Origin: a virus
Lineage: Duplodnaviria > Heunggongvirae > Uroviricota > Caudoviricetes
Reading direction: 5' to 3' (one strand)
DNA: 64,000 nucleotides
IMG/VR virus record: IMGVR_UViG_3300027301_000002
Positions 4,541-55,400 of the stretch are shown here, piece after piece. How positions within the stretch are numbered: the first letter of the stretch is position 1; every line of letters starts with the position of its first letter. Made by a program: the position numbers and the translations under genes. The notes below the pieces were generated by a model. It was not told the origin of the DNA. It searched no databases and was given only the letters and a program-made list of their open reading frames with translations.

Positions 4541-4823
4541 TGGTAGGGGCGGAGGGATTCGAACCCACAATCAACCGATTATGCTTACCACTACGGCTTT
4601 CGCCGCCTGTATAGTTTGTGGTCTGGACTATCCCTTAATCTTCGACATGACTCGGTAAGATTGAACTATTATAGTCTCTGCACGTTCCTCTTTCGAGGCT
4701 TCGCTCAGGATTGGCATCGGCATTATCCGTTAAGCGTTCCCTGAATTTAAGTTCTGCTAACTTACTATTTCTAATAAGAAGACCCGTTAAAGTCGGCTGC
4801 TTTGACCCTTAAGCTACACCCCC
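4541..4823 (-). tRNA. tRNA (anticodon CAU; Met/fMet/Ile2) interrupted by a group I intron in the anticodon loop
   Basis: On the minus strand the 5' exon GGGGGTG-TA-GCTT-AAGGGTCA-AAGC-A-GCCGA-CU and the 3' exon CAUAA-UCGGU-UGAUU-GUGGG-UUCGAAU-CCCUC-CGCCCCU-A-CCA give a full cloverleaf (acceptor GGGGGUG/CGCCCCU, anticodon stem GCCGA/UCGGU, loop CU|CAUAA). The roughly 207-nt insert carries group I core elements. Confidence 0.7.
4584..4790 (-). ncRNA. group I self-splicing intron (ORF-less), approximate boundaries
   Basis: Minus-strand P4/Q-like UUCAGGGAA ... AAUCCUGAG, R-like GUGCAGAGACUAUAA and S-like GGAUAGUCC (plus 4625-4633, 4670-4683, 4704-4712, 4737-4745). A G precedes the 3' exon and a U ends the 5' exon. 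No ORF inside. Confidence 0.6.
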
Positions 4824-6425: not shown

Positions 6426-6851
6426 TTATTTATTTGAGTCGAGAAGATAAAGCAATGATTTCATATACTTTAGTACTTGGTCCTCTGTTGGGCTATCACT
6501 AAGATTTGCTAGCATGTCTGCAATTTTGACTTCTGTTGCGAATCGGTTCGACGCAATGGTTTTAATATACTCGTCGTATGGAATGTCTTTCTTTTTTGTC
6601 AACATGATGACGATATCGATGATTTGGTTCGAAATCCCTTGATCTCGTAGATCTTCGACTGTCACTGACGTATCTTCCAGAACATCATGAAGCCATGCCA
6701 CTGCTTCGACACCTGGATTGTCTGTGAGTCTCGATGCAACAGCTTCGGGATGTTTAATATAAGGAGTAACACCATCTCGCCGAAATTGCCCTTCGTGAGC
6801 CTTTATTGCAATGCGTTTGGCAATCTCTACGATATCGTTTGTTGGTGTCAT
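6426..6851 (-). CDS. small alarmone hydrolase, RelA/SpoT-type HD domain ((p)ppGpp hydrolase-like)
   Basis: AHEGQFRRDGVTPYIKHPEAVASRL ... AVAWLHDVLEDT matches the SpoT/Mesh1 hydrolase HD signature (AH.GQ.R..G.PY..HP..VA ... LLHDv.EDT). Confidence 0.75.
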   Translation of the reverse strand: MTPTNDIVEIAKRIAIKAHEGQFRRDGVTPYIKHPEAVASRLTDNPGVEAVAWLHDVLEDTSVTVEDLRDQGISNQIIDIVIMLTKKKDIPYDEYIKTIASNRFATEVKIADMLANLSDSPTEDQVLKYMKSLLYLLDSNK

Positions 6852-9564: not shown

Positions 9565-10590
9565 TTATTTGTTTGAGTCGTAATCGAGATTGATGATCTT
9601 GAACGAACCTTTGCTGTGTCGAACTACTACACCTTCAAAGGGTTTGCCATCGATTTGATTGATTCCTTTTTGGTAGAAGTTAATCATATCTTCGGATAGC
9701 AACGGCCTCACAGAGTGTTCAAAGTCAACAGTGTAATTGTCGTTTACAAACGGCACATGAGGAATTTGTAATACAGCCGCCACGTTCGGGGAGTAATCAG
9801 CGTCGCCTTCCTTTTCATACTTCAGGGTATTAAGATTGAAGACACTGAATACGGCAAAGTCCAAGGGACCTTTGCTGTGTGGGTTCTTGCTGAAATTTTG
9901 GATATTGCCTCCATAGATTTCACCTCGAAGAGCAAGTGATACGTCGTTCCGTTTGCAATACTCAAGAAGCTTCTCGAGAATATTGTATTTCTTCACGATC
10001 TTGGTATAGTTGTTATTAGTTTCTGGTTTGATTTCTAGATTGCGACTAGTAACACCAGTAGACCATTCTCCGGTCGACGGATCTTTGCGTGCGTAGTAAG
10101 TAGCACTTTGCCCATCAATCTTCAGGGTGACATCAACCTTTTCACCATACGGGAGAAACCCGATAAGGTTCTGGAATCGTTCTTCGTCAGTCTTCACCAG
10201 ACTATACGGCAGATTCCCTTTAGCATCCAGAGAGGTTGGAGCAGGTGGGTCGTACTTATATACCCCAATATGGGAACTAATCTCAGTACCAACTTCGACA
10301 TTTTGAAGATCGAATAACGAGTCTACTTCGGTAAGTCCCATGATAATACCAAACGACCATTCGCCTCGAAGCTTGATAGCTTTGACTCGCGACGACTTTT
10401 TCTTAAAGATTTCAGCCCAGGGCTTATCTGGAAGAACAGTATCGGGCTGGATAAAGACTACACGATCACCTACCTTATATTTGTCTTTAAGAGTGATGCA
10501 TTCATATCCTAGAACTCCAACGAGATCCAACGAATCTGCATTGGGATGATGTTTGACAGCAGCGATGGTTTCAATAGAGGCGAGCTTCAT
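9565..10590 (-). CDS. ATP-dependent RNA ligase-like nucleotidyltransferase with N-terminal tRNA-binding (Myf/Trbp111-type OB) domain
   Basis: The N-terminus AAVKHHPNADSLDLVGVLGYECITLKDKYKVGDRVVFIQPDTVLPD matches the tRNA-binding OB domain found at the MetRS C-terminus and in CsaA. It is followed by the ligase motif I KIDGQS (KxDG). A separate DNA ligase lies at 25869..27005. The start is placed at the internal Met (MKLASIE) because the 5' extension has poor composition. Confidence 0.6.
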   Translation of the reverse strand: MKLASIETIAAVKHHPNADSLDLVGVLGYECITLKDKYKVGDRVVFIQPDTVLPDKPWAEIFKKKSSRVKAIKLRGEWSFGIIMGLTEVDSLFDLQNVEVGTEISSHIGVYKYDPPAPTSLDAKGNLPYSLVKTDEERFQNLIGFLPYGEKVDVTLKIDGQSATYYARKDPSTGEWSTGVTSRNLEIKPETNNNYTKIVKKYNILEKLLEYCKRNDVSLALRGEIYGGNIQNFSKNPHSKGPLDFAVFSVFNLNTLKYEKEGDADYSPNVAAVLQIPHVPFVNDNYTVDFEHSVRPLLSEDMINFYQKGINQIDGKPFEGVVVRHSKGSFKIINLDYDSNK

Positions 10591-10630
10591 GTAGTTAATA
10601 TAGCTCGAGGTGTGATGTGTATCAACTATT

Positions 10631-10981
10631 TTAGCATTTAAGCCAGCGCCATCTTTTATGTCGAACTGCCCATTTTCGTGGGATCCATGACAAAATTTTA
10701 TTGACAAACGACATGACAACTTTGTTGTATTTATACTCAGTTGCATCCCCTTGTTTCCATACGACGATATGGTCGGGCACCACTGTTGGTCTGTTATTGC
10801 CTATGCGATAGACTCGATTCCAATATACAATATCTCTATATGGAGACACCCAGCCTTGGAACCTATCATATCGTGCTGTTAATGTGTCGTAGCTTCTTCT
10901 GGAGAAACTTCGTTCGGCATAGTGCCCATCTTCATGATAGACATATATCGTTGCATTTCCGAAATCATTAAGGGGATTCAT
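10631..10981 (-). CDS. hypothetical protein
   Basis: 116 aa, Trp/Arg-rich. Confidence 0.5.
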   Translation of the reverse strand: MNPLNDFGNATIYVYHEDGHYAERSFSRRSYDTLTARYDRFQGWVSPYRDIVYWNRVYRIGNNRPTVVPDHIVVWKQGDATEYKYNKVVMSFVNKILSWIPRKWAVRHKRWRWLKC

Positions 10982-15404: not shown

Positions 15405-15982
15405 TCATCACGCAAAATATCAAATACTACACCATCTTTTGGTTTGGTGGGTTTCCATAGCAACTTCAACCCACATTCAGACGGAGTCCTATCTGCTTTA
15501 GCGTTATTCACTTCGCGATCACAGCAGACCAAATTATCCCAAGTGTTGGTACCACCTCTGCTAGAAGGAATGATATGATCAACACTGAGTTCACTCTTTT
15601 GTAGTTTCTTTCCGGTGTATGCACAAGTATAGTTATCTCTCCGAAAAATGTTTTGCTTAGTAGGAAATTTGCCCTTCTTAATGACCATTCGGTCGAATCT
15701 GCTACAGATCACAATGGAGGGCAACCGCACTGGTCCTTTGGATGTTTGTACATAATCATCACAAGGACGAATAGGTAGCTTGATCCATTGCTTCCAGTCC
15801 TTGATTGCGATGAACGATTCTATTTGCGTAGTATCGTACGACCCATCCTCATTCTGGGTGTAGCTAATATCCAGTGGGACAAAAGATTTGGAGAAAATAC
15901 CAACCATGATATCAGACCAACTAGCCGGTTCTAGTGGTTGATAGTTAGCATTGAGCTTTAAAATTGGTCTCTTTGAGATCAT
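15383..15982 (-). CDS. HNH endonuclease
   Basis: C-terminal SVDHIIPSSRGGTNTWDNLVCCDREVNNAKADR is a classic HNH motif. Confidence 0.75.
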   Translation of the reverse strand: MISKRPILKLNANYQPLEPASWSDIMVGIFSKSFVPLDISYTQNEDGSYDTTQIESFIAIKDWKQWIKLPIRPCDDYVQTSKGPVRLPSIVICSRFDRMVIKKGKFPTKQNIFRRDNYTCAYTGKKLQKSELSVDHIIPSSRGGTNTWDNLVCCDREVNNAKADRTPSECGLKLLWKPTKPKDGVVFDILRDDWQMFVK

Positions 15983-22501: not shown

Positions 22502-22575
22502 GGTCTTTTAGTTTAATGGTAAAACGACGCACTTGTAATGCGTTGATTCCGGTTCGACTCCGGACAGGACCTCCA
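22502..22575 (+). tRNA. tRNA-Thr (UGU)
   Basis: D-arm GUUU-AAUGGUA-AAAC, anticodon arm ACGCA-CUUGUAA-UGCGU, T-arm UCCGG-UUCGACU-CCGGA, CCA encoded. Confidence 0.7.
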
Positions 22576-22584
22576 TTTCTTTTT

Positions 22585-22660
22585 ACGTGCTAATGTCCCA
22601 AGGCAGGCGAGTTGGACTCCAAATCCGACTGGGTCAGTTCGATTCTGACAGCACGTGCCA
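22585..22660 (+). tRNA. tRNA-Trp (CCA)
   Basis: Perfect acceptor ACGUGCU/AGCACGU, anticodon arm UUGGA-CUCCAAA-UCCGA, T-arm GUCAG-UUCGAUU-CUGAC, G73-CCA. Confidence 0.7.
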
Positions 22661-22665
22661 ATTTC

Positions 22666-22739
22666 GGCCTATTAGTTTAGTGGTAAAACAATTTACTCGT
22701 AATGAATAGTCCCCAGCTCAATTCTGGGATAGGCCTCCA
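22666..22739 (+). tRNA. tRNA-Thr (CGU), atypical T-loop CUCAAUU
   Basis: Perfect acceptor GGCCUAU/AUAGGCC, D-arm GUUU-AGUGGUA-AAAC, anticodon arm AUUUA-CUCGUAA-UGAAU, CCA encoded. Confidence 0.65.
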
Positions 22740-22745
22740 TCTTAT

Positions 22746-22822
22746 GCGGTTGTAGCTCAATTTGGTAGAGCGCATCCTTGCCAAGGATATTGTCGCAGGT
22801 TCGAATCCTGTCAGCCGCACCA
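22746..22822 (+). tRNA. tRNA-Gly (GCC)
   Basis: Acceptor GCGGUUG/CAGCCGC, D-arm GCUC-AAUUUGGUA-GAGC, anticodon loop UUGCCAA, T-arm CAGG-UUCGAAU-CCUG, A73-CCA. Confidence 0.75.
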
Positions 22823-22824
22823 AT

Positions 22825-22917
22825 GGGTAGTTAAGCAGACAAGCGTACTGCAACCGTCTCGAAAGCGGATTGATCTAGCGAACCTAGGTTGGGGTGCAAG
22901 TCCTCAGCTACCCGCCA
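22825..22917 (+). tRNA. tRNA-Ser (CGA), class II, T-loop UGCAAGU
   Basis: Third member of the Ser paralog family; anticodon loop CUCGAAA; G73-CCA. Confidence 0.6.
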
Positions 22918-22925
22918 TTTTATAT

Positions 22926-22999
22926 GGTCCTTTAGCATAATGGTAATGCATCGGATTTTGATTCCGACTATGATGGTTCAATTCCATCAGGGACTTCCA
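22926..22999 (+). tRNA. tRNA-Gln (UUG)
   Basis: D-arm GCAU-AAUGGUA-AUGC, anticodon arm UCGGA-UUUUGAU-UCCGA, T-arm GAUGG-UUCAAUU-CCAUC, CCA encoded. Confidence 0.7.
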
Positions 23000-23087: not shown

Positions 23088-23159
23088 GCCTCTGTAATTC
23101 AAAAGTAGAATGGTTGTTTCATAAGCAACACGGTGAAGGTGCAAGTCCTTCCGGAGGTA
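23088..23159 (+). tRNA. tRNA-Met (CAU), T-loop UGCAAGU, no encoded CCA
   Basis: Acceptor GCCUCUG/CGGAGGU, D-arm AUUC-AAAAGUA-GAAU, anticodon arm GUUGU-UUCAUAA-GCAAC, T-arm GAAGG-UGCAAGU-CCUUC, A73 followed by CUA. Confidence 0.65.
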
Positions 23160-23168
23160 CTAATTTAT

Positions 23169-23961: not shown

Positions 23962-24036
23962 TGCGGGATAGAGCAGTAGTAGCTCAACTGGCTCATAACC
24001 AGGAGGTCGGTGGTGCAAGTCCATCTCCCGCAACCA
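23962..24036 (+). tRNA. second tRNA with CAU anticodon (Met/fMet/Ile-lysidine), T-loop UGCAAGU
   Basis: Acceptor UGCGGGA/UCCCGCA, D-arm GAGC-AGUAGUA-GCUC, anticodon loop CUCAUAA, T-arm GGUGG-UGCAAGU-CCAUC, A73-CCA. Confidence 0.6.
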
Positions 24037-24050
24037 ATTTCAACATATGT

Positions 24051-24146
24051 GCTCCTGTAGCTCAATTGGTAGAGCGGAAAGCTTATACCTTTCGTATGCC
24101 CCAGATTAGGGCGCGGTTGTCGGTTCGAATCCGGCCAGGAGTACCA
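24051..24146 (+). tRNA. atypical 96-nt tRNA-like gene: canonical D- and T-arms, anticodon-arm-like hairpin with UAU, plus a long extra hairpin
   Basis: Acceptor GCUCCUG/CAGGAGU, D-arm GCUC-AAUUGGUA-GAGC, hairpin GAAAG-CUUAUAC-CUUUC, second hairpin GCCC-CAGAUUA-GGGC, T-arm GUCGG-UUCGAAU-CCGGC, A73-CCA. Identity unresolved. Confidence 0.45.
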
Positions 24147-24164
24147 ATTTCAACGAAAACAAAA

Positions 24165-24488
24165 ATGACTAAAAAAGATCGCAACAAACCCACATATGAG
24201 TGGATTGATGTAAATGCTGGTGAAGCATATTACTCTTTATATGCATATTGTTTAGACAACGCCGATCAACTAAACGGCCATCCTGGAATTCAAATCGGGT
24301 GTTATCATTACGCCATCAGCAGAAAGATGACACCAAAAAAACCATTCAAAGTACATGCTAGGAAAATGAATCAAGGGCATATATGGAGAGGCTGGGGTAG
24401 ATCTTACATTAAAGTAGATCGCGACATTCAGGTAGATAACAAAAAAAGATTCTGGCCTACACACAATCAAATTTCAATAGAAGTTTAA
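24165..24488 (+). CDS. hypothetical protein
   Basis: The ORF-track 23922..24488 runs through two tRNA genes. The plausible start is the ATG at 24165 (MTKKDRNKPTYEW...). Confidence 0.45.
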   Translation: MTKKDRNKPTYEWIDVNAGEAYYSLYAYCLDNADQLNGHPGIQIGCYHYAISRKMTPKKPFKVHARKMNQGHIWRGWGRSYIKVDRDIQVDNKKRFWPTHNQISIEV

Positions 24489-24497
24489 CCTGCACAT

Positions 24498-24572
24498 GCC
24501 TCTGTAATTCAATGGTAGAATAACAGACTTTTAATCTGAAGGTTATGGGTTCGAGTCCCATCGGAGGCACCA
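24498..24572 (+). tRNA. tRNA-Lys (UUU)
   Basis: Acceptor GCCUCUG/CGGAGGC, D-arm AUUC-AAUGGUA-GAAU, anticodon loop CUUUUAA, T-arm AUGGG-UUCGAGU-CCCAU, A73-CCA. Confidence 0.75.
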
Positions 24573-24641: not shown

Positions 24642-24716
24642 TCCTCAGTGGCAGACTAGCAATGCACCCGACTGTTAATCGGGATTATGAAGGAGCGTAA
24701 CCTTCCTGAGGAGCCA
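24642..24716 (+). tRNA. tRNA-Asn (GUU), atypical T-loop AGCGUAA
   Basis: Perfect acceptor UCCUCAG/CUGAGGA, anticodon arm CCCGA-CUGUUAA-UCGGG, T-arm GAAGG-AGCGUAA-CCUUC, G73-CCA. Confidence 0.6.
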
Positions 24717-29073: not shown

Positions 29074-29562
29074 ATGAAAACAAAACTACTATCACTAGTA
29101 ATGGCACTCGCAACACAAATGGCATTTGCAGGCTCTCCTGTAACACCTCCAACCCCTGCTACACCAGAAGTTGGATCCACAGGATGGGTTTCAAAGGCAT
29201 TCACAACTGTGGTCCTTGACAATGGTGATGAAACAGTCGGTGGAGGTTTGAGTCTTGAAGCTCCAGTTGTAGGCGATCTGAAAGCAGAACTTACTGTTGG
29301 TGTAGCAGATGACCTTTATACCGTAGGTGGTAATCTTCTCTATTACGTCCCCGTAGGAGAGAAGCTTTCTGTATATGGCTTGGCGGGCGGTGCTTATGAA
29401 TTCGATACAGATCAATGGACCGTACGAACCGGTGGCGGTCTAAGTTATAGTCTTACTAATACCCTCAATCTGTTTGCAGATGCAACCTACAATTTCCTTG
29501 TAGAGAATGATGCCAAGGATGGCGTCGTTGCAATTCGAGCAGGTGTTGGGTTTAAGTTCTGA
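29074..29562 (+). CDS. outer-membrane beta-barrel protein (OmpX/Lom/OMP_b-brl-like)
   Basis: Signal peptide MKTKLLSLVMALATQMAFA, alternating amphipathic strands, C-terminal ...GVGFKF ending in Phe. Confidence 0.55.
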   Translation: MKTKLLSLVMALATQMAFAGSPVTPPTPATPEVGSTGWVSKAFTTVVLDNGDETVGGGLSLEAPVVGDLKAELTVGVADDLYTVGGNLLYYVPVGEKLSVYGLAGGAYEFDTDQWTVRTGGGLSYSLTNTLNLFADATYNFLVENDAKDGVVAIRAGVGFKF

Positions 29563-29634
29563 TTATACTGATCTGAATAGGCGAACGCCACCTGGTAAAG
29601 TGCGTGACAGCCGGAGAGACGGCCTCGTTAATTT

Positions 29635-29709
29635 GGGTGGTTCGTATAACGGATAGTACGCAACGCTACGGACGTTGAGACAGGGGTTCGATTCCTCTAC
29701 TGCCCACCA
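29635..29709 (+). tRNA. tRNA-Arg (ACG)
   Basis: Acceptor GGGUGGU/ACUGCCC, anticodon arm CAACG-CUACGGA-CGUUG, T-arm AGGGG-UUCGAUU-CCUCU, A73-CCA. Confidence 0.65.
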
Positions 29710-29712
29710 TAT

Positions 29713-29787
29713 GCCCAGTTCGTTCAACGGATAGGACAGCGGTCTTCTAAACCGCGAATAGAGGTTCGATTCCTCTACTGGGTACCA
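29713..29787 (+). tRNA. tRNA-Arg (UCU)
   Basis: Acceptor GCCCAGU/ACUGGGU, anticodon arm GCGGU-CUUCUAA-ACCGC, T-arm AGAGG-UUCGAUU-CCUCU, A73-CCA. Confidence 0.7.
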
Positions 29788-29797
29788 TTTTCCATAT

Positions 29798-29874
29798 AGC
29801 CACGTGATGTAATTGGTAAACGTGACGGTCTCAAAAACTGTTTTCTATGGGTTCGAGTCCCATCGTGGCTACCA
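29798..29874 (+). tRNA. tRNA with anticodon CAA (Leu UUG), class I (short variable arm), A73
   Basis: Perfect acceptor AGCCACG/CGUGGCU, D-arm AUGU-AAUUGGUAA-ACGU, anticodon arm ACGGU-CUCAAAA-ACUGU, 5-nt variable loop, T-arm AUGGG-UUCGAGU-CCCAU, A73-CCA. Confidence 0.65.
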
Positions 29875-29875
29875 T

Positions 29876-29952
29876 GCCCTGTGTAGCATATTTAGTTAAT
29901 GTCTTCGCCTGTGAAGCGAACGAAGATGGTGCAATTCCATCCCAGGGAACCA
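29876..29952 (+). tRNA. tRNA-His(GUG)-like gene with imperfect acceptor stem (possible pseudo-tRNA)
   Basis: Anticodon arm UUCGC-CUGUGAA-GCGAA and T-arm GAUGG-UGCAAUU-CCAUC are clean, but the 5'/3' acceptor pairing (GCCCUGU vs CCAGGGA) has terminal mismatches. A-CCA follows. Confidence 0.35.
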
Positions 29953-29954
29953 AT

Positions 29955-30100
29955 TCGCGAATAGTTAATGGTATCGTTCGAAAGATACTAAAGACTAACT
30001 GAGACCCCCATTTCGAAGTTTATAGGTTGAACACCGCAGTTAATCGGTGCGGGAGGTGTGTTCGAGTGCACACGATGGATCAGGTCTCGACAATTTACAT
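29955..30100 (+). ncRNA. irregular structured segment inside the tRNA array (tRNA-like fragments; not a clean cloverleaf)
   Basis: Begins GCGAAUAGUUAAUGGUAUCG (tRNA 5'-like). Contains hairpins GUAUC-GUUCGAAA-GAUAC and CACCG-CAGUUAAU-CGGUG and a T-arm-like GUGUG-UUCGAGUG-CACAC, with no matching acceptor 3' strand. Confidence 0.3.
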
Positions 30101-30102
30101 AT

Positions 30103-30176
30103 GCCCGCATAGCCCAATCGGTAGAGGCACTTGACTTAGGATCAAGAGGTTGGGGGTTCGAATCCCTCTGCGGGTA
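30103..30176 (+). tRNA. tRNA with anticodon UAG (Leu CUN), class I, A73, no encoded CCA
   Basis: Acceptor GCCCGCA/UGCGGGU, anticodon arm CUUGA-CUUAGGA-UCAAG, variable AGGUU, T-arm GGGGG-UUCGAAU-CCCUC, A73 followed by CUU. Confidence 0.6.
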
Positions 30177-46433: not shown

Positions 46434-49049
46434 TTACACGGGCGTCGGGGTAGGTGTCGGCGACGGTGATGTAGTTACTTCTACTGATGTGTATCCGCCA
46501 GGACCAACCTCATTTACTGCGCGGACGTAAATCGTGTATACACCATAGCTTCCTACATCAATAAGTAGAGGAGGTTCAGTCTCCACTGCATCTGTCCAAA
46601 TTGTATAAGGATCAAGTGGATCACTTAGTGTGTATTGGTATATTGTGATCGGCGATCCGCCATCATATGGTACTGTGAAGTAAAGTGCAGCTAAAGTATT
46701 GCTAGTATCGTATGTTATTGACGGTATCGTCGTTGGGATTGTAGGCACAATTGGTACAATTGGTACAACTGGCGTGGCTGTTGGTGTGGCGGTTGGCGTA
46801 ATCAAGACATCATTGCAATACGAGTTATATGTTGCGCTATCGATGATAGTAGTATTTCCTGTTGTCAGGGTTATGATGGTAGCGATATCTGAGCGCAATC
46901 CATATGTAACGGCGTAATATTCACCGTTATAAATAAGATACTGACCGCTGTATACAAATCCATCTGCTGCATCTACCCCGTATTTGATAGTAGAGCCGCA
47001 CATTTGCATAACTAAAATTTCACCACAATCACCAAATCCAACACTAGCATTGGTTATAGTTGCTGGATATAATGTAACCGGACCGATATAAGCAATTGAA
47101 TCTGTTTCTTCTCCGTATAATTGGTTTCTTGAACCTCTCAATGTTTTGCGATACCTTTTAAACTCGACTTCAATTTCAAAATAGAGATTATTTTCTTTTA
47201 GGTATGTATCGGTCTCTGATGCAGTTTTACCCATTACAATGGATGCTAATTCGTCTAATTGATCGTTTGCAAAATTAAACCACGAATCCCCTACATACCA
47301 TTCATCTAATATTTTCGAATAATTTTCAACATAGTTAAAATTCCAGCTTCTTGATTTTTGGGCATCAGCGGCAAATGTTTGTGAGCTTAATACATTAGCA
47401 ACGGCAATATTCCAAAATGAATATCTGCGCTTACATGTTTCTACTGGCTTATTAGTATAGTTGATATTAGGACGAACATAATACTCGGCACCTCTAACGC
47501 TGTAATCAGGCAGTGCAGATACAGAGAATAGAACAGTGGCTTGTTTTATTTTTTCGCCTGCTTGATATTCTGGTAATTCATATCCATATTGATATACATC
47601 TATTATGGTGACATTTTCAATCAACTGGGATGTTTGAGGAACTATCGACACATAATAGTAATTTCGATTATCGAGATTGATATATACGACAGATCCTAGA
47701 TATGGTTTGAGTAATGGATTCTTAGAATACAATACAGTCTTTGATGTATTAAAACACGACGGTGTTAATTTGTAAAGCAGTGTATCTTTAGGTTTTGGGA
47801 TTTCTTGTGAATTACAATCTTCATAAAGATCTACAACAGTATACTCTTCTGTTATCTGCTGATTATCGTAAACTACCTTTTCAATATACCATCTTACTCC
47901 TGGATACTCTGCAAGAGTAACAGCCTTGCCTGGGATTAAAATGCGTTTATTATCAATGACAAATAATTCTTTTCGAAGAGTTCCGTTAACAACATCTGGG
48001 CATGGCTGATATTTCCAACAGCAATTTGTCAATTTGATTATAACGGGTGCTGCTCTATTGATTCTATATTCACACCCACATTCGCAATCTTCAGATGATG
48101 CTACTACAGTCCAGTCACCAGCAAGACCATCTATTTGCACTGTAGTATCAGATCCAGCATAAAATTGGAATTCATCATTTGTTGCTACGATTTTTTCCTG
48201 AGTAAACGTATTGGTTAGGATATAACAAGTATCACTACAACCTTTCTTTGTTGTGAAAATAGGATTAAGATTTGTAGTGATTGCTTTATCTGCAACCGAT
48301 ACTTTACTTACTAAGAATCTTTGATCTGGGTATTTGTCCAGAACAACCCCAAGACCTACTAAATGGCTATAATCATTAGATGAATAAAAAGCAAGACCAG
48401 GAACTGAACAAGATGCAAATTTATAATAATAGCTAAAACCTTCTGGTTCTGGTTCACAAACCTCAATGACGGACTCTGGGCAATAAAAAGGATTCATTGT
48501 AGGCCAGTATTCCCATTTGAGTATGGGGTATCCTGTCTTGATAAATCGACCCATTAAGAATCTTTCGTTATTGTTAACCGCATTAAATTTGGATACAAAA
48601 TACGGTGCCAGGATAGGATTCGGTCTATTTGTTTCATCTGCATATTGTCTTAATGCAAATACATATAAATCATTCAAACGGCAGTCTGCAGATTCTGCTG
48701 GAAACGTAGTTTCGAGCCATTTTGAAATAGTTGTTGCGAAGGTGGACCGGTCTGTTATTTTGATTGGGCAAAATACTGTTACAGGCTTTACTGCGAAACA
48801 TGAAGTCGATCTGGTTATCGACACCATATCGTTTAACGATTTGTATTTTTCTTTACCTGTAGATGTATCAAGCAAATATGCAGTTGTTGCTACAATATCC
48901 TGCAGAATCGGAACAGCTTCAGATATTTTTTTTGTCTGTGTGTATATAACACCCGTTTGTTTATCTATCCACTTAAAATGATCATTGATAAGCACAATGG
49001 CCGAACCTGCGCTTTCAGTGTCTTTAATTTGTGGATACGAACATGACAT
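46434..49049 (-). CDS. large virion structural protein (fibre/baseplate-like) with Pro/Thr-rich linker and FN3 domain
   Basis: 871 aa. C-terminal PTATPTATPVVPIVPIVPTIPTTIPS linker and GGSPITIYQYTL...YTIYVRAVNEVGPGG FN3-like domain. Confidence 0.6.
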   Translation of the reverse strand: MSCSYPQIKDTESAGSAIVLINDHFKWIDKQTGVIYTQTKKISEAVPILQDIVATTAYLLDTSTGKEKYKSLNDMVSITRSTSCFAVKPVTVFCPIKITDRSTFATTISKWLETTFPAESADCRLNDLYVFALRQYADETNRPNPILAPYFVSKFNAVNNNERFLMGRFIKTGYPILKWEYWPTMNPFYCPESVIEVCEPEPEGFSYYYKFASCSVPGLAFYSSNDYSHLVGLGVVLDKYPDQRFLVSKVSVADKAITTNLNPIFTTKKGCSDTCYILTNTFTQEKIVATNDEFQFYAGSDTTVQIDGLAGDWTVVASSEDCECGCEYRINRAAPVIIKLTNCCWKYQPCPDVVNGTLRKELFVIDNKRILIPGKAVTLAEYPGVRWYIEKVVYDNQQITEEYTVVDLYEDCNSQEIPKPKDTLLYKLTPSCFNTSKTVLYSKNPLLKPYLGSVVYINLDNRNYYYVSIVPQTSQLIENVTIIDVYQYGYELPEYQAGEKIKQATVLFSVSALPDYSVRGAEYYVRPNINYTNKPVETCKRRYSFWNIAVANVLSSQTFAADAQKSRSWNFNYVENYSKILDEWYVGDSWFNFANDQLDELASIVMGKTASETDTYLKENNLYFEIEVEFKRYRKTLRGSRNQLYGEETDSIAYIGPVTLYPATITNASVGFGDCGEILVMQMCGSTIKYGVDAADGFVYSGQYLIYNGEYYAVTYGLRSDIATIITLTTGNTTIIDSATYNSYCNDVLITPTATPTATPVVPIVPIVPTIPTTIPSITYDTSNTLAALYFTVPYDGGSPITIYQYTLSDPLDPYTIWTDAVETEPPLLIDVGSYGVYTIYVRAVNEVGPGGYTSVEVTTSPSPTPTPTPV

Positions 49050-49050
49050 G

Positions 49051-49851
49051 TTAGCTACTTAAAGGAGTGGTCGTAACATACTGCCAGCGAGATCCGCTAT
49101 TGTTTACAAATTTATAGTAATTTTGGTAAACGGCTGGAATGTAATTCACTATAGATGAATTCAGATTTTCAAGACCTGCAATTTGCGCTAATAATGATAC
49201 CGAGGTGCCTCCTGCTGCATCAAATCCTGTAGCTTTATTATCGCGTCTGCTTGCCACGTTATTGCGGTCATGGCCGATTACTGTTCTTGTATTAGTTACG
49301 CAACGACCTCGAATACTGCAGCTACGATAGCTCCAGGTAACAGCAGCTCGGCACTTAGCTGTCAGGTATCTTGTATCTGGTGCGATTGTTTCTAGATCTT
49401 TATAGAACCCCAATGTAAAGACAAATATTTCTTGGCCTTTGCAATAATTCGTTACTGTATTCGAATCAATAGTAGCCGTAACAGGGAAGTTAGAATTTAA
49501 CCACGATGAAATGCTGTTAATGAATGTAGTTTGATTAATGGCATTATTATCTGGTGTCAATGGGAAAATAAGAGATATTGGTCTTAACCAACAAGCACTA
49601 TATGAAGATACGGTGGTATACGCATCGTTCCAATTTGCAGAGTTTGATTTTACAACAGTTGCAACATCCGCCCATGTGCTGGAAGTCTCTTTGGCTATTG
49701 TGTATAAAGCATTCCAATATAAATCAGCCGATAGAGAAATATTGGTTAGCTTGTAATCAAGCAACGCAAAATTTTGATTAATTGTCGACAGGGTATTGCC
49801 TGCACAGATGCGCGGGTCAATTGATGTAATAGATTCGCTAAATGTCGGCAT
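49051..49851 (-). CDS. virion structural protein (hypothetical)
   Basis: 266 aa, Ser/Thr/Asn-rich, between the fibre-like genes. Confidence 0.5.
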   Translation of the reverse strand: MPTFSESITSIDPRICAGNTLSTINQNFALLDYKLTNISLSADLYWNALYTIAKETSSTWADVATVVKSNSANWNDAYTTVSSYSACWLRPISLIFPLTPDNNAINQTTFINSISSWLNSNFPVTATIDSNTVTNYCKGQEIFVFTLGFYKDLETIAPDTRYLTAKCRAAVTWSYRSCSIRGRCVTNTRTVIGHDRNNVASRRDNKATGFDAAGGTSVSLLAQIAGLENLNSSIVNYIPAVYQNYYKFVNNSGSRWQYVTTTPLSS

Positions 49852-50152
49852 AAAATTATAATGGGGATTGTCGGGCGCTCGTGGATAGAGTATTGCTAAG
49901 TCGGCTCACCATCTAGTCTCTGCACCTTTCTAATAATACTGGGACTTTTATTAGAGTTGGCTCAAGATTGACTCCGAAGAGTTGTCCCTTGAATTCACCC
50001 GATATGGGCCGTGATAACCCTGCGCAGCAGCAAGTATTGTTATCGCAAAGCCGTTTAAACTTTGCTTCTACATGTCGCCATGCAGTTCGGACTATTTCTT
50101 CAATCCCCATATAACCTATTTACCGGGTGTCTTTATTTTATTGCCACCTATA

Positions 50153-52426
50153 TTATAAAATTAATTGGTAATATGTTTTCTCCCAAGAACCTACTGGTTT
50201 GGCGTTAGTAATCCATGTGCCTGAACTCGTTGATTGCCTATATCCATTGAAAACTTGACCGGATCCAGACGGAGGATACACCCCAGGTGCAGTAGAAGCA
50301 GGAACATATGCAATTCCTCTCGAATATCGACAAATTCGGCTGTTGTACTCCGCATAATTGCTGCCGCCACCCCCATACCCAGGGATATCAATGCCATATT
50401 GTAAATCTCTCAAAAGATATTGAGTATAGCCTGCTAGGTTAGTTATATCGATAGTCGAAAACTGATTATTAGGATATGTACTGATAAATGCGGCATATTC
50501 AAATGAAGTACCGATTGTAACTAATGCACTATATCTAAATAGGTAAGAACCTAAATCAGAGAAAAATCCATTATTAACAGAAGATAAGTGATTAAGGTAT
50601 CCAAAAGATTGCTGGGTCATTTGTGTAGCTAAAGGCACTATCTTGGATGACAGTGGAATTAAAGCTTGTCTGTCTGTATCAGTCACACCAAAGTCCATCA
50701 ATCGTTCGCTCTCCAATGAAGCAAGTCTGGTCATTGAACCTCCATCGTTTGTTGTTCCTATATGAATACCAGTGCCCATGCCCTCGAAATGGACGCTGTC
50801 CACAGACACCCCGTCACCTTGATAAATTAATATTCCAAATAATGGCCAAGTTCTTATGTATGGGAAAGATGCAGTTAGCGCTGCTGATGTGGTAGAACAA
50901 TCTATTGTCCCAGTTTTAATATTACAAACTGATGTATTTTTATTAATAAAGATAGGTATCGCTCCACGACGGGTTGCTTCTTTAATCCAGAAATTCTGAA
51001 TTTGCAATCCATTGATAATACCACCATCTTGTTTCGTCGCGTCGCCAGCATTACGCCAAGTGTCATACATGCCGCCGCCAATTCCCATGCCGGAAAAATA
51101 CTGAATATCCACATCACGGATAATAGTATTCTCTTCGACATTATGTTTCCATGAAATTCCGCTAATTCTTTTAGTTGGATTATTAATTGTAGCCTCCGCA
51201 GCAACGATGGTCATGCCTTCTACACCACTCCAGTATCGCGCCCCGCCCCCACCAGACATCGGAGCTACCCCAGACCAGTAGCTCCCGTTTCCACCCCCAA
51301 TCCAAAATAGAGAAGAAGCACAGCTGGCTGTTTCCATTTCAGTATCTAATGTGATTGGTGTGGCGAATCCTGTAGTTGTACCTACAAATGTAGTCCCAGA
51401 AAGAACTATTGATGTTAATGCCACTGCTGCTGTTGTACCGCTAACTGTATGGGTGCCGTTATACAGTGGCGAATTTGTTATGCGTGCCTGGCCGCCGCTT
51501 AAAAATTCAAATGAGCCACCGGTTGGGGTAATTAATTTAGTGCCACCAGGGACAGAACATGCAGCAGTAAAGTTGGTAGTCCCGCTGTATTTCATGAAAT
51601 TACTCCAAAATCTGAATCGGGTCGTTGGTTGCCAAGTATCAGATGTCCATAATTTGGATGCGATTATTTTAGTAGCATTAGAACCAGCACCCTTAAATCG
51701 AATTGCTAATTCTGTAGCATCTAGCGGCCTTCCGACATAATAAATACCAGCAGCAAAGCTGATAGTTCTGCCGATACTAAAGGACGGATCTGATGTACGA
51801 ATAGCGCAATTTATTGCAATATCATGTCTACCGTCGTGCACTGTAGACCCCTGTAGACCCCACCACTCCGGAAATATTTCACTATTTCTCATTGTGCCTT
51901 TTATAGTACTAGCCGGCCAGTTGCTAAATATTTGCACCCGAGGGGCTACCACCTCGCCCTCGATAAACAAAATAGTTAAACCTGTTCTGATGAACTTATA
52001 TCCATTAAAAATGATAGAACATCGCGCTGGAATTGAAAGATTGCCCGGCGCGCTAAAGGAAATATCTTTGCCTAGAATTATAGTCTGAATTGATGAGTTG
52101 TTTTTAGCTGCTATGAGTTCGTCATACGTCGTAACAAATGCCTGCGACCCGCCGGCCCAAAAGCTAGAATTAGAACTAACTAACGAAAATAGAGGCAGAC
52201 TATTATTTAAATTCAACAATGTAACTCGACCAAATCCATCTGCCCCTGGCTGGCCATTATCACGATAAATCAACATCTGGGCCGATGAGGACAAAGACGC
52301 TAACGAAGATAGATCCGTAAAATTAACAATACATGCCATATAATTGTATTTACTTAATGGATTAGCTTGACAAAGAATAAAGTGACAAAATACTAGAATT
52401 ACCACCCAAGGAAAGAACAGACCCAT
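50153..52426 (-). CDS. large structural protein, probable beta-helix/fibre
   Basis: 757 aa, Gly/Ser/Thr/Asn-rich with repetitive beta-rich segments. The N-terminus overlaps the upstream giant ORF by 65 nt in another frame. Confidence 0.5.
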   Translation of the reverse strand: MGLFFPWVVILVFCHFILCQANPLSKYNYMACIVNFTDLSSLASLSSSAQMLIYRDNGQPGADGFGRVTLLNLNNSLPLFSLVSSNSSFWAGGSQAFVTTYDELIAAKNNSSIQTIILGKDISFSAPGNLSIPARCSIIFNGYKFIRTGLTILFIEGEVVAPRVQIFSNWPASTIKGTMRNSEIFPEWWGLQGSTVHDGRHDIAINCAIRTSDPSFSIGRTISFAAGIYYVGRPLDATELAIRFKGAGSNATKIIASKLWTSDTWQPTTRFRFWSNFMKYSGTTNFTAACSVPGGTKLITPTGGSFEFLSGGQARITNSPLYNGTHTVSGTTAAVALTSIVLSGTTFVGTTTGFATPITLDTEMETASCASSLFWIGGGNGSYWSGVAPMSGGGGARYWSGVEGMTIVAAEATINNPTKRISGISWKHNVEENTIIRDVDIQYFSGMGIGGGMYDTWRNAGDATKQDGGIINGLQIQNFWIKEATRRGAIPIFINKNTSVCNIKTGTIDCSTTSAALTASFPYIRTWPLFGILIYQGDGVSVDSVHFEGMGTGIHIGTTNDGGSMTRLASLESERLMDFGVTDTDRQALIPLSSKIVPLATQMTQQSFGYLNHLSSVNNGFFSDLGSYLFRYSALVTIGTSFEYAAFISTYPNNQFSTIDITNLAGYTQYLLRDLQYGIDIPGYGGGGSNYAEYNSRICRYSRGIAYVPASTAPGVYPPSGSGQVFNGYRQSTSSGTWITNAKPVGSWEKTYYQLIL

Positions 52427-55400
52427 TCGGAGAAAGTGCCATATAACCTTGATGTATTTCTGGAATGCGTGTGCCGCTAAGTGTTACCACTTCGCAACAA
52501 CCACTACCAACAGATGACATCTGTTCCCATGTTCTACCACCAATACCAGGACTATCTGATCTCAATTCAATAAATGAGATTGGATTTACGATACAATTCT
52601 TTTTAACTGGATCATAAGATCCCATCGATGCCCAAGACCAGCACCAGCTATTTTTACACATATCAGATCCAATGATTGTGTCAAGAGATACTCTTAGTTT
52701 ATCAAGATTTGCATACAGATGCTTAATTACCCGATTGATAACGTCTGTAAATACAAGCTCATTTTGTCCAATGAAACATTGGCTGAAATCGAATTGCGGT
52801 AGTTCTGCTGTCAACATCGGTTCCATATCAATAGATATATTACCAGCAAGATCGATGCTTCTCACATATTTGGAATGTATGTTTTTGGCGAGCAATTCGA
52901 AATTATCTTTGATTCTGTTAAATACGACATTATATACCCAGTCTTGAATCAAATCTTGTTCTTCGATCAAAATATCATCAGCTTTCCATAGTGCACCTTC
53001 AATATCATTTATAATGCTCTTGATTGAAACAAAATCTGTATTTTTATAGATTGATCGGGTGTCGATAATATAAACGCCTCTACCATACTGACAGATGCTA
53101 TTGAGTTGAGTTACATATGGCGTATATAAAGGCATAAAATATCCGAGATAATACCCCTGAGACGTAATCTTGGATATGTGTGTATTATATACGATATAAA
53201 TTATACCATCATCAATATTATTAGCATGTATTTTAACAGGAGTGCCTGCAAAAGGATTGGCGATGCCTGATATTGTGCTAACATATTCGCCTGTGTTATT
53301 GAATGTGTATATCTGGCCATCTGCTGTTAATACATATACATTCGCTGCAGTATCTGTAGTGATGGATACTAAATTATTCTTCATTACCCATTCCCCGTGA
53401 GAAATGTTATAGAAGTATTGCATCTTATCATTATAAACTTTAATGACATCATTATTCTTGTCAATCACGTATATCTTGCCTAGATTATAATGGATATCAG
53501 TCGGGGTGTTAAATCGATATGGGCGATGAGCATTGCCCAAACCACCGATTTTGTTTAAAAATGTAAACGTTCCAGTACTATATTCGATGCTGTAGACATA
53601 TACGCAATGATTCGCGGTGTCTGTTATGTATATTTCTCCATCGTCATTAATAGCAATGGAGTCTAGCTTCCCTACGTAATCTTTTTCTCCGACGAGATTA
53701 GTATCGTTTAATTTTCTCGAAAGTCGATCCAAATCATATATTTTAATACTATCCGTGATTGTATTATCTGTATTCCGATCAATTACAATTAATCTATCAT
53801 TGTATATCTTGGCATCTTGTACGTCATGAAATTCAGTAGCGTCGAATTCTGGGAAAACATTAACCCAATCTGATTCGGATACATCATTCCAACGATGGCC
53901 TTTGCTATTCTCCGCTCCTAACCATTTATTAAACAATACTGGCAACTTGGTATCATTAAGTTTTGATTTATTGATCAAATAATCAAAATTAGCAAGCAAT
54001 TTCTTGAGTGAACTATTAATATTATTAGCATTGGCAATCTCGTTTGGTGCTACATAGATTTGATCCAAACTATAAGGGAATATTAATTGTTCGTTGTATG
54101 TTCGTGCATTTTTGTCAAACGTGTCAAATGCATTAACTACATTGATAGCTCTATCATATTTCGATTCAATTGTCGTTTGAATTGATGATAGGAGCCCGTA
54201 TGTATTCGCAGATACGGAGATAGAATATACACCAATGTCATTAAGGTTGTTAAACGCAAACGTTTCAGTTGATGCTGGATATACTTGTGTCTGGCCATTA
54301 AATGTTATTGATATCGAGCCCAATCCATAATCAGCACCACCACAGTTTGTATTTTTGTAATAATTTTTGATTGTCAATGCAGACCCAATAGCATAATAAT
54401 CTTCATCCCAGAATAGATTGAATGTTGGTATCTTAATCGCCGTAATTGTGTCTACTCTTGTAGATGTTGTTGTTTTACCAATTTCTACAGAATTGTACGC
54501 ATTAGTTACTATTGTATCTGTAGATGTGATAGCCAAGACGGCACAGTTGTATGAGTCTGGATCTGTGATGATATTATCAGGAATTGTAATGGTGTTATTG
54601 TTAAATCCAGAGACTAAGCTATACTCAATCGGTCCATATGTTATTGATTGTTGTGTATCCAGACTACGAATGTTTACATATGAGGTAGTAGTACCCCCAA
54701 CAACATATTCGCCTTTATTATTTGAAGTAAATACAGCTGCATCATATAAACTACTAATTGAATCCGAATAAAAATATACATCTGCAGGCTCTGCTGATAT
54801 CACAGGCGTTGCCAAATCGATAAATTGCAATGGCTTGAAATAATCAGACGTGACGCTAGAGTTTGCTGTATAAATTACATTATTGCGATCTTGTAGTAAG
54901 TTAATTGCATTTTTAACATTGACATATGCAGTTTTATTATCATCATAATCCGCTCTCGATGTAAGAGCAGTTAATGAAGGGACTACATCTAGCTGTAGAT
55001 AATACCCCTTGACAGATATAGCAGATAATGTACCCGCAGTTCCTTTGATTGTGGCTGATGCAATTGGTGAATTGGTTACATATTCCTTTTCGTTTCCAAT
55101 GGTCCATGCATATGTTTTATATCGTGTTCCGAACGAGCTTAACACAAGTGTTTCTGTATGGCCATTTCCAACGGTTGTTAATTGTGTATTAACTGTTATT
55201 GAGTTTAGAGTGTTGACTGCTGACGGTCCTTGGTTGGTAAATGTATTAACCGTCCACACCTTTGCACTGAGCTCATTGACAGATGCTTGTGGTGATACAT
55301 ATACATAGAGTGGTTTTGACTTCAGAATAGCATACTCTCCATTTTGATATGTAAATTTTGATGATAAATTAAACGTACCAATGCCGGCGGATAATCCAGA

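Follow-up and report, generated by a model that had tools for sequence, protein, structure and literature searches.

Can a transfer RNA (tRNA) gene of a phage be split by a group I intron, and which tRNA would such a gene yield? The question was raised by positions 4541–4823 of a 64,000-nt stretch of DNA from the IMG/VR virus record IMGVR_UViG_3300027301_000002 (Caudoviricetes), the whole of which is referred to as the window and is taken to derive from a large uncultured phage. An earlier note, made from the sequence letters, had described there a tRNA(CAU) gene whose anticodon loop is split by a group I intron without an open reading frame (ORF). Judged by comparative analyses, the locus is very probably a functional split gene for an elongator-type CAU tRNA, interrupted by an ORF-less group I intron and carried by a large uncultured phage-like genome.

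Anatomy of the split tRNA gene

Direct reading of the minus strand and ARAGORN with introns allowed placed a pre-tRNA of 283 nt at 4541–4823. The 33-nt 5′ exon (GGGGGUGUAGCUUAAGGGUCAAAGCAGCCGACU, 4823–4791, tRNA positions 1–33) comprises the 5′ strand of the acceptor stem, the D arm, the 5′ strand of the anticodon stem, C32, and U33. The latter (4791) supplies the U at −1 relative to the 5′ splice site, and an exon-final U is common to all homologues. It is followed by an IC3-like group I intron of 207 nt (4790–4584) that starts with UUAACGGGUC and ends with GUGGUAAG; its final nucleotide, the omega-G (4584), lies directly 5′ of C34. The 43-nt 3′ exon (CAUAAUCGGU...CGCCCCUACCA, 4583–4541, tRNA positions 34–76; full sequence CAUAAUCGGUUGAUUGUGGGUUCGAAUCCCUCCGCCCCUACCA) contains the anticodon CAU (4583–4581), A37 and A38, the 3′ strand of the anticodon stem, the variable loop, the T arm, the 3′ strand of the acceptor stem, the discriminator A, and an encoded CCA (4543–4541). 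The junction reads ...GCCGACU–intron–CAUAAUCGGU, i.e. the insertion is located between U33 and C34 of a CAU tRNA. ARAGORN read the joined exons as a tRNA(cat) of 76 nt that folds into a canonical cloverleaf, in agreement with the exon lengths and the fold given in the earlier note. The cloverleaf contains the wobble pairs G1.U72, U6.G67, and G27.U43 and one mismatch, U50:U64.

The insert was as ORF-less as had been described. The largest ORF on its own strand has 31 amino acids (4628–4723), the largest on the opposite strand 42, and neither an ORF of ≥50 amino acids nor a homing-endonuclease ORF was found within the 207 nt. All core motifs quoted previously were located on the minus strand (UUCAGGGAA, 4745–4737; AAUCCUGAG, 4712–4704; GUGCAGAGACUAUAA, 4682–4668; GGAUAGUCC, 4633–4625), and the G said to precede the 3′ exon is G4584. 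In default mode, ARAGORN did not call a gene at 4541–4823; with introns allowed it reported c[4541,4823] with a 207-nt intron, the boundary of which was misplaced (see below).

Homology of the insert to group I introns

A search with the Rfam model Intron_gpI (RF00028), which had been proposed as a check, gave a full-length match on the minus strand (4814–4606, 40.3 bits); E was 1e-8 in the region alone and 8.2e-7 across the whole window versus all families. This match is significant, while its score is below the gathering score of 50, and the locus is absent from the Rfam scan at gathering threshold. Because bacterial tRNA introns often get low scores, according to a published author, and because this one stayed below the gathering score, an nhmmer profile was built from ten bacterial tRNA introns of the PMC13011429 supplement, none of which was chosen using the window (nine labelled IC3, Table S5, and the Anabaena tRNA-Leu intron, Table S4). 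The profile matched 4585–4764 on the minus strand with 80.8 bits (E = 1.4e-24), and its envelope (4584–4792) was nearly equal to the predicted intron. These two matches and the helices P1 to P9 described below support the group I intron claimed for the CAU anticodon loop.

Pairwise blastn comparisons with published Ile2 33/34 introns yielded E values from 4e-10 to 2e-8. The core was 76–81% identical over approximately 75 nt to introns in phage records, i.e. 80.5% to Pseudoalteromonas phage RIO-1, 80.8% to Staphylococcus phage StB12, and 78.2% to pVa5; the matching RIO-1 intron carries the annotation 'group I mobile intron'. From the IC3-labelled homologues and the absence of P7.1/P7.2 and P5abc, we infer that the intron belongs to subgroup IC3. 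A transfer-messenger RNA (tmRNA), named in the earlier note as a competing model, was rejected, as RF00023 reached only 13.3 bits versus a gathering score of 47 and its match was limited to the tRNA-like 3′ half. Matches to mascRNA and to plastid untranslated regions at the locus were likewise discarded as weak echoes of the tRNA 3′ half.

Secondary structure and covariation

The structure was drawn by hand and projected onto 12 homologues aligned with MAFFT, comprising four of phage type, a short metagenome contig with a phage-type core (L158), and seven of initiator type from bacterial metagenome-assembled genomes (MAGs; L127, L129) and unassigned metagenome contigs. In this alignment, standard pairs were present in 95.4% of cells versus 31–43% when the partners were slid by 1–3 columns, and 39 of 60 pairs had changed on both sides. 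The covariation score was 0.611 versus 0.08–0.14 for the slid partners, and none of 500 shuffles reached the observed value.

All elements of the predicted fold are located on the minus strand. In P1 (4781–4794), the exon nucleotides GACU (4794–4791) pair with the internal guide GGUC (4784–4781) across the loop UUAACG, with a U33.G wobble at the 5′ splice site. The guide covaries with the anticodon stem of the host tRNA at exon position −3, where the pair is G-C in eight sequences and A-U in four. The P2 hairpin (CUUAUUA-GAAA-UAGUAAG, 4761–4778) has changed on both sides in all seven pairs among the homologues. P3 is formed by GAACU (4754–4750) and AGUUC (4667–4663), with compensatory changes in 5/5 pairs, e.g. 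GAAUG/CAUUC in L088. P4 (4704–4745) consists of UUCAGGG (4745–4739) and UCCUGAG (4710–4704) and encloses P5 (4735–4714); it corresponds to the pair previously termed 'P4/Q-like', is paired in 100% of cells, and covaries in three of its seven pairs. In the P6/P6a hairpin (CG-AAG-CCUC-GAAA-GAGG-AA-CG, 4683–4703), the second P6 pair switches from G-C to C-G.

P7, the predicted guanosine-binding helix, is built from G-(A bulge)-GACUA (4678–4672) and UAGUCC (4630–4625) and forms a pseudoknot with P3. It was invariant in 12/12 aligned sequences and paired in 100% of cells, its 3′ strand, like the 3′ junction, being constant by construction because most of the homologues were gathered with patterns taken from the window. 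This 3′ strand lies inside the conserved J8/7-P7-P9.0 block GGGAUAGUCCAGACCAC, which is identical in published bacterial tRNA introns labelled IC3. The P8 hairpin (4637–4662) combines AAUCUU/AAGAUU with an inner CGA/UCG; 9/9 pairs have changed on both sides, and the inner stem reads CGA/UCG, CAG/CUG, or UGG/CCA across the phage alleles. The P9 domain (4588–4621) comprises an invariant P9.0 (CCAC/GUGG, 4621–4618 with 4591–4588), a mini-hairpin (CU-AUAC-AG), and P9b (GCGGC-GAAA-GCCGU), in which 4/5 pairs covary. GAAA tetraloops cap P2, P6, and P9b, and the intron is devoid of P7.1/P7.2 and P5abc. The conserved helices P3 to P8, the P3/P7 pseudoknot, and the bulged P7 nucleotide are all present in the window copy.

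Position of the splice sites

Both a boundary after position 33 and one after position 36 would give a 7-nt anticodon loop. Among the boundaries with a loop of this size, only 33/34 has both U at −1 and omega-G, and it also provides the U.G wobble in P1 and the anticodon CAU in all orthologues. The motif GGUAAG/CAUAA (boundary at the slash) was kept in homologues found by a core-only pattern. An intron-less relative is present in Achromobacter phage Motura, the tRNA of which is 85.9% identical to the joined exons, has an uninterrupted CGACUCAUAAUCG, and reads CGACU-CAUAAUCG at the predicted junction; E. coli tRNA-Ile(CAU) likewise has an uninterrupted CGACUCAUAAUCG.

Run with option -i, ARAGORN returned 'tRNA-Stop (tta) i(37,207)', which puts the intron after position 36 and would make the product an ochre-suppressor tRNA with the anticodon UUA. 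This boundary places A at −1 and U at the omega position, and it assigns unrelated anticodons to the orthologues (CGA in L036, UAG in L088), whereas 33/34 fits them all and agrees with the intron-less Motura tRNA. Boundary shifts of the same type by ARAGORN and tFind have been documented (PMC13011429). A suppressor tRNA therefore deserves almost no credence; the U-1/omega-G rule, the orthologues, and the intron-less homologue all led to rejection of the 'tRNA-Stop(tta)' boundary. Further ARAGORN -i calls in the window (22502–22999, 24051–24572, 29368–30175) were dismissed as artefacts that join adjacent tRNA genes.

Identity of the spliced tRNA

The earlier note had left the choice between an initiator, an elongator tRNA-Met, and a lysidine-containing tRNA-Ile. 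Of these, the initiator can be dropped: the spliced product can hardly be one, as it has G1.U72 in place of a 1:72 mismatch, an anticodon stem (GCCGA/UCGGU) without G29–31:C39–41, and C11:G24 instead of A11:U24. Sequence comparisons moderately favour tRNA-Ile2, the lysidine-dependent reader of AUA, and the elongator tRNA-Met remains as the second candidate. Identity was 0.66–0.75 to four labelled Ile2 references versus 0.57–0.64 to fMet and Met references, which is a weak margin. The joined exons matched 5424 of 5426 E. coli genomes, and the 12 matches listed were annotated as tRNA-Ile, not as tRNA-Met; a representative E. coli match that was fetched has the anticodon CAT, as in ileX. E. coli tRNA-Ile2 and another E. 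coli tRNA-Ile(CAU) have exactly the same anticodon arm (G27.U43, then CGACUCAUAAUCG). A clear resemblance to Ile2 is seen in the orthologous split tRNAs L036 and L088 (0.70–0.82 versus ≤0.67).

Against tRNA-Ile2 stand the pairs 4:69 and 5:68, both of which are G:C in the window tRNA. The determinants recognised by E. coli TilS are reportedly C4:G69 and C5:G68 (Ikeuchi et al. 2005); E. coli ileX has both, L036 and L088 have them in part (C4:G69 with U5.G68). This mismatch lowers the Ile2 assignment without excluding it, because such determinants vary from one bacterium to another. A tRNA with the anticodon UAU, suited to AUA, is moreover already encoded in the window, which weakens the need for a tRNA-Ile2. 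AUA accounts for 15.2 per 1000 codons and 20% of the Ile codons in the 43 long ORFs of the window, so that a reader of this codon would be useful.

The same deviating pairs, the small similarity margin, and the UAU tRNA that could read AUA speak for an elongator tRNA-Met with unmodified C34 that would read AUG, a product that would leave intron and splicing unchanged. The other non-initiator CAU tRNA of the window (23088–23160) is not clearly a tRNA-Met either, and both ARAGORN and the Motura record say 'tRNA-Met', a label derived from the anticodon alone. With the anticodon arm, the tRNA-Ile annotation of the listed E. coli matches, and the Ile2-like orthologues on the opposite side, the elongator tRNA-Met is an alternative to be reckoned with but the less probable of the two.

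As had been stated before, the window contains two further CAU tRNAs, both on the plus strand. The one at 23962–24036 is initiator-like, with A11:U24, U1:A72, and an identity of 76–78% to labelled fMet references and of 77% to the initiator of E. coli. The one at 23088–23160 reaches ≤0.60 identity to Met, fMet, and Ile2 references and has no encoded CCA. The UAU tRNA (24051–24146, plus strand; anticodon for Ile, AUA) has 96 nt and a hairpin variable arm of approximately 25 nt like that of a class II tRNA. It scored 58 bits with the Rfam tRNA model; this form is unusual for a tRNA-Ile, and the gene is a second possible AUA decoder.

Relatives in viruses, metagenomes, and bacteria

In IMG/VR, a pattern confined to the core retrieved no fewer than 118 loci with the core type of the window intron, about 10 of which were found inside tRNA genes by ARAGORN with introns allowed. 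The loci L036, L060, and L088 are tRNA(CAU) genes with a 207–215-nt intron at 33/34. A junction pattern was found in 14 IMG/VR contigs of up to 174 kb (three allele groups), in 41 metagenome contigs, and in 10 bacterial MAG contigs (Acidobacteriota, Planctomycetota, Chloroflexota, Patescibacteria, and others). Eight of the 10 MAG contigs carry a split CAU tRNA of initiator or Ile2 type; the other two matches are not tRNA genes. The exact exon–intron junction of the window had no match in IMG/VR, and its allele represents a fourth phage type that is a singleton in the collections searched.

The window pre-tRNA is approximately 87% identical overall to the L139 group. A tblastx comparison of the window with the flanks of all split-tRNA loci revealed no synteny, the matches being limited to the tRNA itself, one tRNA-Leu, and one weak patch (15482–15625). 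When the window/L139 group is compared with the L036 group, introns are 89–92% identical and exons 75%; the higher conservation of the intron fits either lateral spread or a stronger constraint on the ribozyme. The closest relative, L139, is a 138.7-kb viral contig with the split tRNA at 692–974 on the minus strand. An ORF on its plus strand (305–697) has a CxxC...CxxC arrangement and a weak HNH match (E = 5e-4, under the Pfam cut-off), and stops at the 3′ end of the split tRNA, which lies on the other strand.

Split tRNA genes were also found in isolated phages. The Klebsiella jumbo phage Muenster has an unannotated tRNA(CAU) split at 36/37 with the guide GUG (L001 1414–1724, corresponding to MT708547 ~302826–303136), and the record OU509535 has one at the same site (L002 1496–1797). 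Their RF00028 scores, 104 bits for Muenster and 90 bits for OU509535, are both above the gathering score, and the Muenster exons begin with GGCCCCU, as does E. coli tRNA-Ile2. For phiKp_21, KP13-7, and RCIP0023, the same gene is indicated by core matches alone, which fall at the equivalent spot. The gene is unannotated in all four annotated Klebsiella jumbo-phage (Alcyoneusvirus) records, Muenster, phiKp_21, KP13-7, and RCIP0023. In OU509535, a gene for an HNH_3 endonuclease (E = 4e-19) begins 18 nt after the split tRNA(CAU).

Other tRNAs split by the same intron core type were tRNA-Asn(GUU) in L009, L018, and L069, tRNA-Asp(GUC) in L075, tRNA-Leu(UAA) in L055 and L061, and a CAU tRNA interrupted at 36/37 in L073. 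Under the U-1/omega-G rule, the sites in the IMG/VR split-tRNA contigs (77–361 kb) are 33/34, 34/35, 35/36, or 36/37, and ARAGORN mislabels several of these tRNAs (Thr, Gln, and others). In the uncultured 595-kb phage LR756511.1, a tRNA-Leu(UAA) (L174 519–1305) has a 700-nt group I intron at the classical site 34/35 that encodes an HNH-like ORF with the motif HHIDGDRKNN...CPNCH.

Proposed splicing pathway and alternative explanations

In the proposed pathway, the minus strand would be transcribed, probably together with the same-strand ORF that ends 18 nt upstream of the split tRNA. The 207-nt intron would fold into a compact IC3-type ribozyme with P1 to P9, the P3/P7 pseudoknot, and GAAA tetraloops, in which the terminal GACU of the 5′ exon is bound by the guide GGUC and the U33.G wobble marks the 5′ splice site. 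Free guanosine is expected to attack after U33, whereupon the omega-G (4584) would take the guanosine-binding site in P7 and the 3′ hydroxyl of U33 would attack after omega-G. The exons would thereby be ligated to the loop CU-CAU-AA with release of the intron, and end processing would give the 76-nt tRNA with its encoded CCA. If the product is tRNA-Ile2, the TilS of the host would turn C34 into lysidine and the tRNA would read AUA. As the intron has no endonuclease gene, it would most simply be a phenotypically neutral selfish element that is inherited or occasionally transferred.

Several observations weigh against a functional split gene. Besides the RF00028 score under the gathering value, P10 is weak, and the T-stem mismatch U50:U64 together with the wobbles G1.U72 and U6.G67 could mark a weakened gene. 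Minimum-free-energy folding of the pre-tRNA was not distinctive (z = −1.46), a measure that is uninformative here because the ribozyme is pseudoknotted. The gathering of most covariation homologues with window-derived patterns belongs on the same side. If the intron or the tRNA had decayed to a pseudogene without a functional tRNA, the low Rfam score, the U50:U64 mismatch, and the several wobble pairs would be accounted for, as would the loop of the P9a mini-hairpin, which is non-GNRA in the window and GNRA in the phage relatives, and the singleton state of the allele. Decay is nevertheless very improbable, since all core helices pair perfectly in the window copy, its differences from the relatives sit in stems as compensatory pairs, and U-1, omega-G, the P7 with its bulged A, and the J8/7-P7 block are intact. 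Wobble pairs are, besides, common in phage tRNAs.

A functional split gene in turn need not be a neutral one. The intron might mark or immunise the tRNA gene versus a free-standing homing endonuclease, as in collaborative homing or phage–phage competition, or it might delay the anticodon loop or shield it from anticodon nucleases of the host. Pointing in this direction are the HNH_3 gene 18 nt after the split tRNA in OU509535, the weak HNH ORF that abuts the split tRNA in L139, the excess of intron over exon identity between allele groups with unrelated flanking genes, and an RNA ligase gene 4.7 kb away in the window. For PhiPA3, an intron endonuclease with a role in phage competition has been published (PMC11620839). 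In the window, however, neither the two flanking ORFs nor the scanned ORFs of the tRNA cluster contain an endonuclease domain, constraint on the ribozyme alone can explain the higher conservation of the intron, and nothing ties the RNA ligase to the split tRNA. A non-neutral role of the window intron is thus rather improbable, and a neutral selfish element is preferred.

On a wider scale, phage tRNA genes may represent an undescribed niche of group I introns, in which the introns spread or confer immunity in phage–phage competition. We put this forward tentatively, as a conjecture that is somewhat less likely than not. A niche is suggested because the CAU intron, which is better conserved than its exons, occurs in at least four allele groups on large phage contigs that are otherwise unrelated, and because introns also split further phage tRNAs (Asn, Asp, Leu-UAA, and CAU at 36/37), among them those of the isolated Klebsiella jumbo phages. 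The suggestion of spread or immunity derives from the free-standing HNH gene that abuts the split tRNA in some phages.

Genomic context and further features of the window

A megablast search of window positions 1–25000 versus 50,697 phage records gave no match, so the source phage has no close sequenced relative; its NrdA is ≤49% identical to cyanophage proteins. The window encodes approximately 30 tRNAs, both subunits of ribonucleotide reductase, and a DNA ligase. The split tRNA is located 18 nt downstream of a same-strand ORF, with which it is probably co-transcribed. The two ORFs flanking it showed neither a family match nor an endonuclease domain in Pfam and PHROG, and no homing endonuclease was found in the nine ORFs of the tRNA cluster that were scanned.

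The RNA ligase is encoded at 9565–10746 on the minus strand (PHROG 968, E = 8e-52; Pfam RNA_ligase and PHA02142 OB domain), an HD-domain phosphohydrolase at 6426–6851, also on the minus strand. Both genes lie within 6 kb of the split tRNA and could serve in RNA repair. A contig search for this RNA ligase returned one 2.8-kb Logan contig that added no context. A gene of the window is also present in a Logan contig from SRR8437740.

A tRNA at 24642–24713 (plus strand) was seen by Rfam only (47.9 bits), ARAGORN having missed it; the anticodon loop CU-GUU-AA points to Asn, and the T loop is odd. Another candidate for a group I intron was detected on the minus strand at 49870–50005, in the gap 49050–50152. 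It scored 46.3 bits with RF00028 (gathering score 50, E = 1.3e-8) over model positions 47–158 only and was matched weakly by the profile of bacterial tRNA introns (E = 4e-4). It is flanked by large minus-strand ORFs (46434–49049 and 50153–52426) without a PHROG match, which may be one gene split by an intron. Two very large ORFs are also located on the minus strand, 52362–59834 (2490 amino acids) and 59860–63132 (1090 amino acids), the latter without a PHROG match.

Comparison with known introns

Group I introns of bacterial tRNAs are catalogued in PMC13011429 (mSystems 2026) and by Williams 2020, with 33/34 as the classical position in tRNA-fMet. Table S5 of PMC13011429 lists IC3 introns at 33/34 of Ile2(CAT) in Acidobacteriota and Bacillota_B and of tRNA-fMet in cyanobacteria and Bacteroidota; thus, the kind of intron is already known. 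The earlier note had called such introns rare, which does not apply to 33/34, the classical bacterial tRNA-fMet/Ile2 intron site, where they are neither rare nor new in bacteria. It had also stated that they are known in a few phages. For this, no support was found in the literature consulted; instead, unannotated phage cases came to light. According to the review of Hausner et al. 2014, all phage group I introns then known were in protein genes, and a full-text search of papers mostly from outside the subscription journals yielded no later account of one in a phage tRNA gene.

The phage loci contradict the generalisation that phage group I introns are confined to protein genes despite the many phage tRNA genes. 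Both standard tRNA finders and the Rfam gathering threshold miss the window gene. Since split tRNA genes are missed or left unannotated, phage tRNA repertoires and the codon-usage arguments built on them are incomplete. The phage cases link the bacterial and phage pools of tRNA introns and offer a vehicle for the patchy spread of tRNA introns across bacterial phyla. As a compact natural IC3 ribozyme of 207 nt with natural compensatory variants, the intron may be useful for work on ribozymes and RNA circularisation. It reveals no new mechanism; its value lies in the consequences for annotation and in a modest evolutionary lead.

The bacterial 33/34 IC3 introns share with the window intron the U33/C34 site, the CAU anticodon, the architecture, and the blocks GGGAUAGUCCAGACCACAAAC and (G)GUAAG/CAUAA. 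They are mostly ORF-less with 200–300 nt, which places the 207 nt of the window intron at the short end. Unlike them, the window intron is carried by a phage-like element with approximately 30 tRNA genes. The phage alleles form a sequence type of their own, with UUCAGGG in P4 where bacteria have UUCGGGG, a minimal P9a, and GUGCAGAGACUAUAAU in place of GUGUAGAGACUAGAYGG.

The phage introns in protein genes, i.e. those of T4 td, nrdB, and nrdD, of Twort and SPO1, of the RIO-1 primase/helicase, and of thyA of Vibrio phage pVa5, likewise reside in phage genomes; the P4-P6-P7 core of the window intron is 76–81% identical over approximately 75 nt to the introns in phage records named above (RIO-1, StB12, pVa5). 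The introns in protein genes interrupt mRNAs, often contain homing-endonuclease ORFs, and are mostly of subgroup IA2 (PMC11835236). The window intron, in contrast, is located in a tRNA, is ORF-less, lacks P7.1/P7.2, and has the P9 domain of the bacterial tRNA IC3 introns.

The intron of Azoarcus is likewise small (~200 nt), ORF-less, and of type IC3, and it interrupts a CAU tRNA-Ile in the anticodon loop. Like the window intron, it has GAAA tetraloops on peripheral helices. It is inserted after the anticodon (36/37), where its guide GUG pairs with the exon sequence CAU, whereas the window intron precedes the anticodon (33/34) and uses the guide GGUC with the exon sequence GACU. The Azoarcus site is shared by the introns of the Klebsiella jumbo phages (L001, L002). 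The tRNA-Leu intron of Anabaena, an anticodon-loop IC3 intron that self-splices in vitro according to the literature, has the same overall architecture at a different site (34/35), and phage-borne versions of this tRNA-Leu 34/35 type are present in L055, L061, and the 595-kb phage LR756511. By mechanism, the window intron is an ordinary IC3 tRNA intron; what is apparently unreported is its phage setting.

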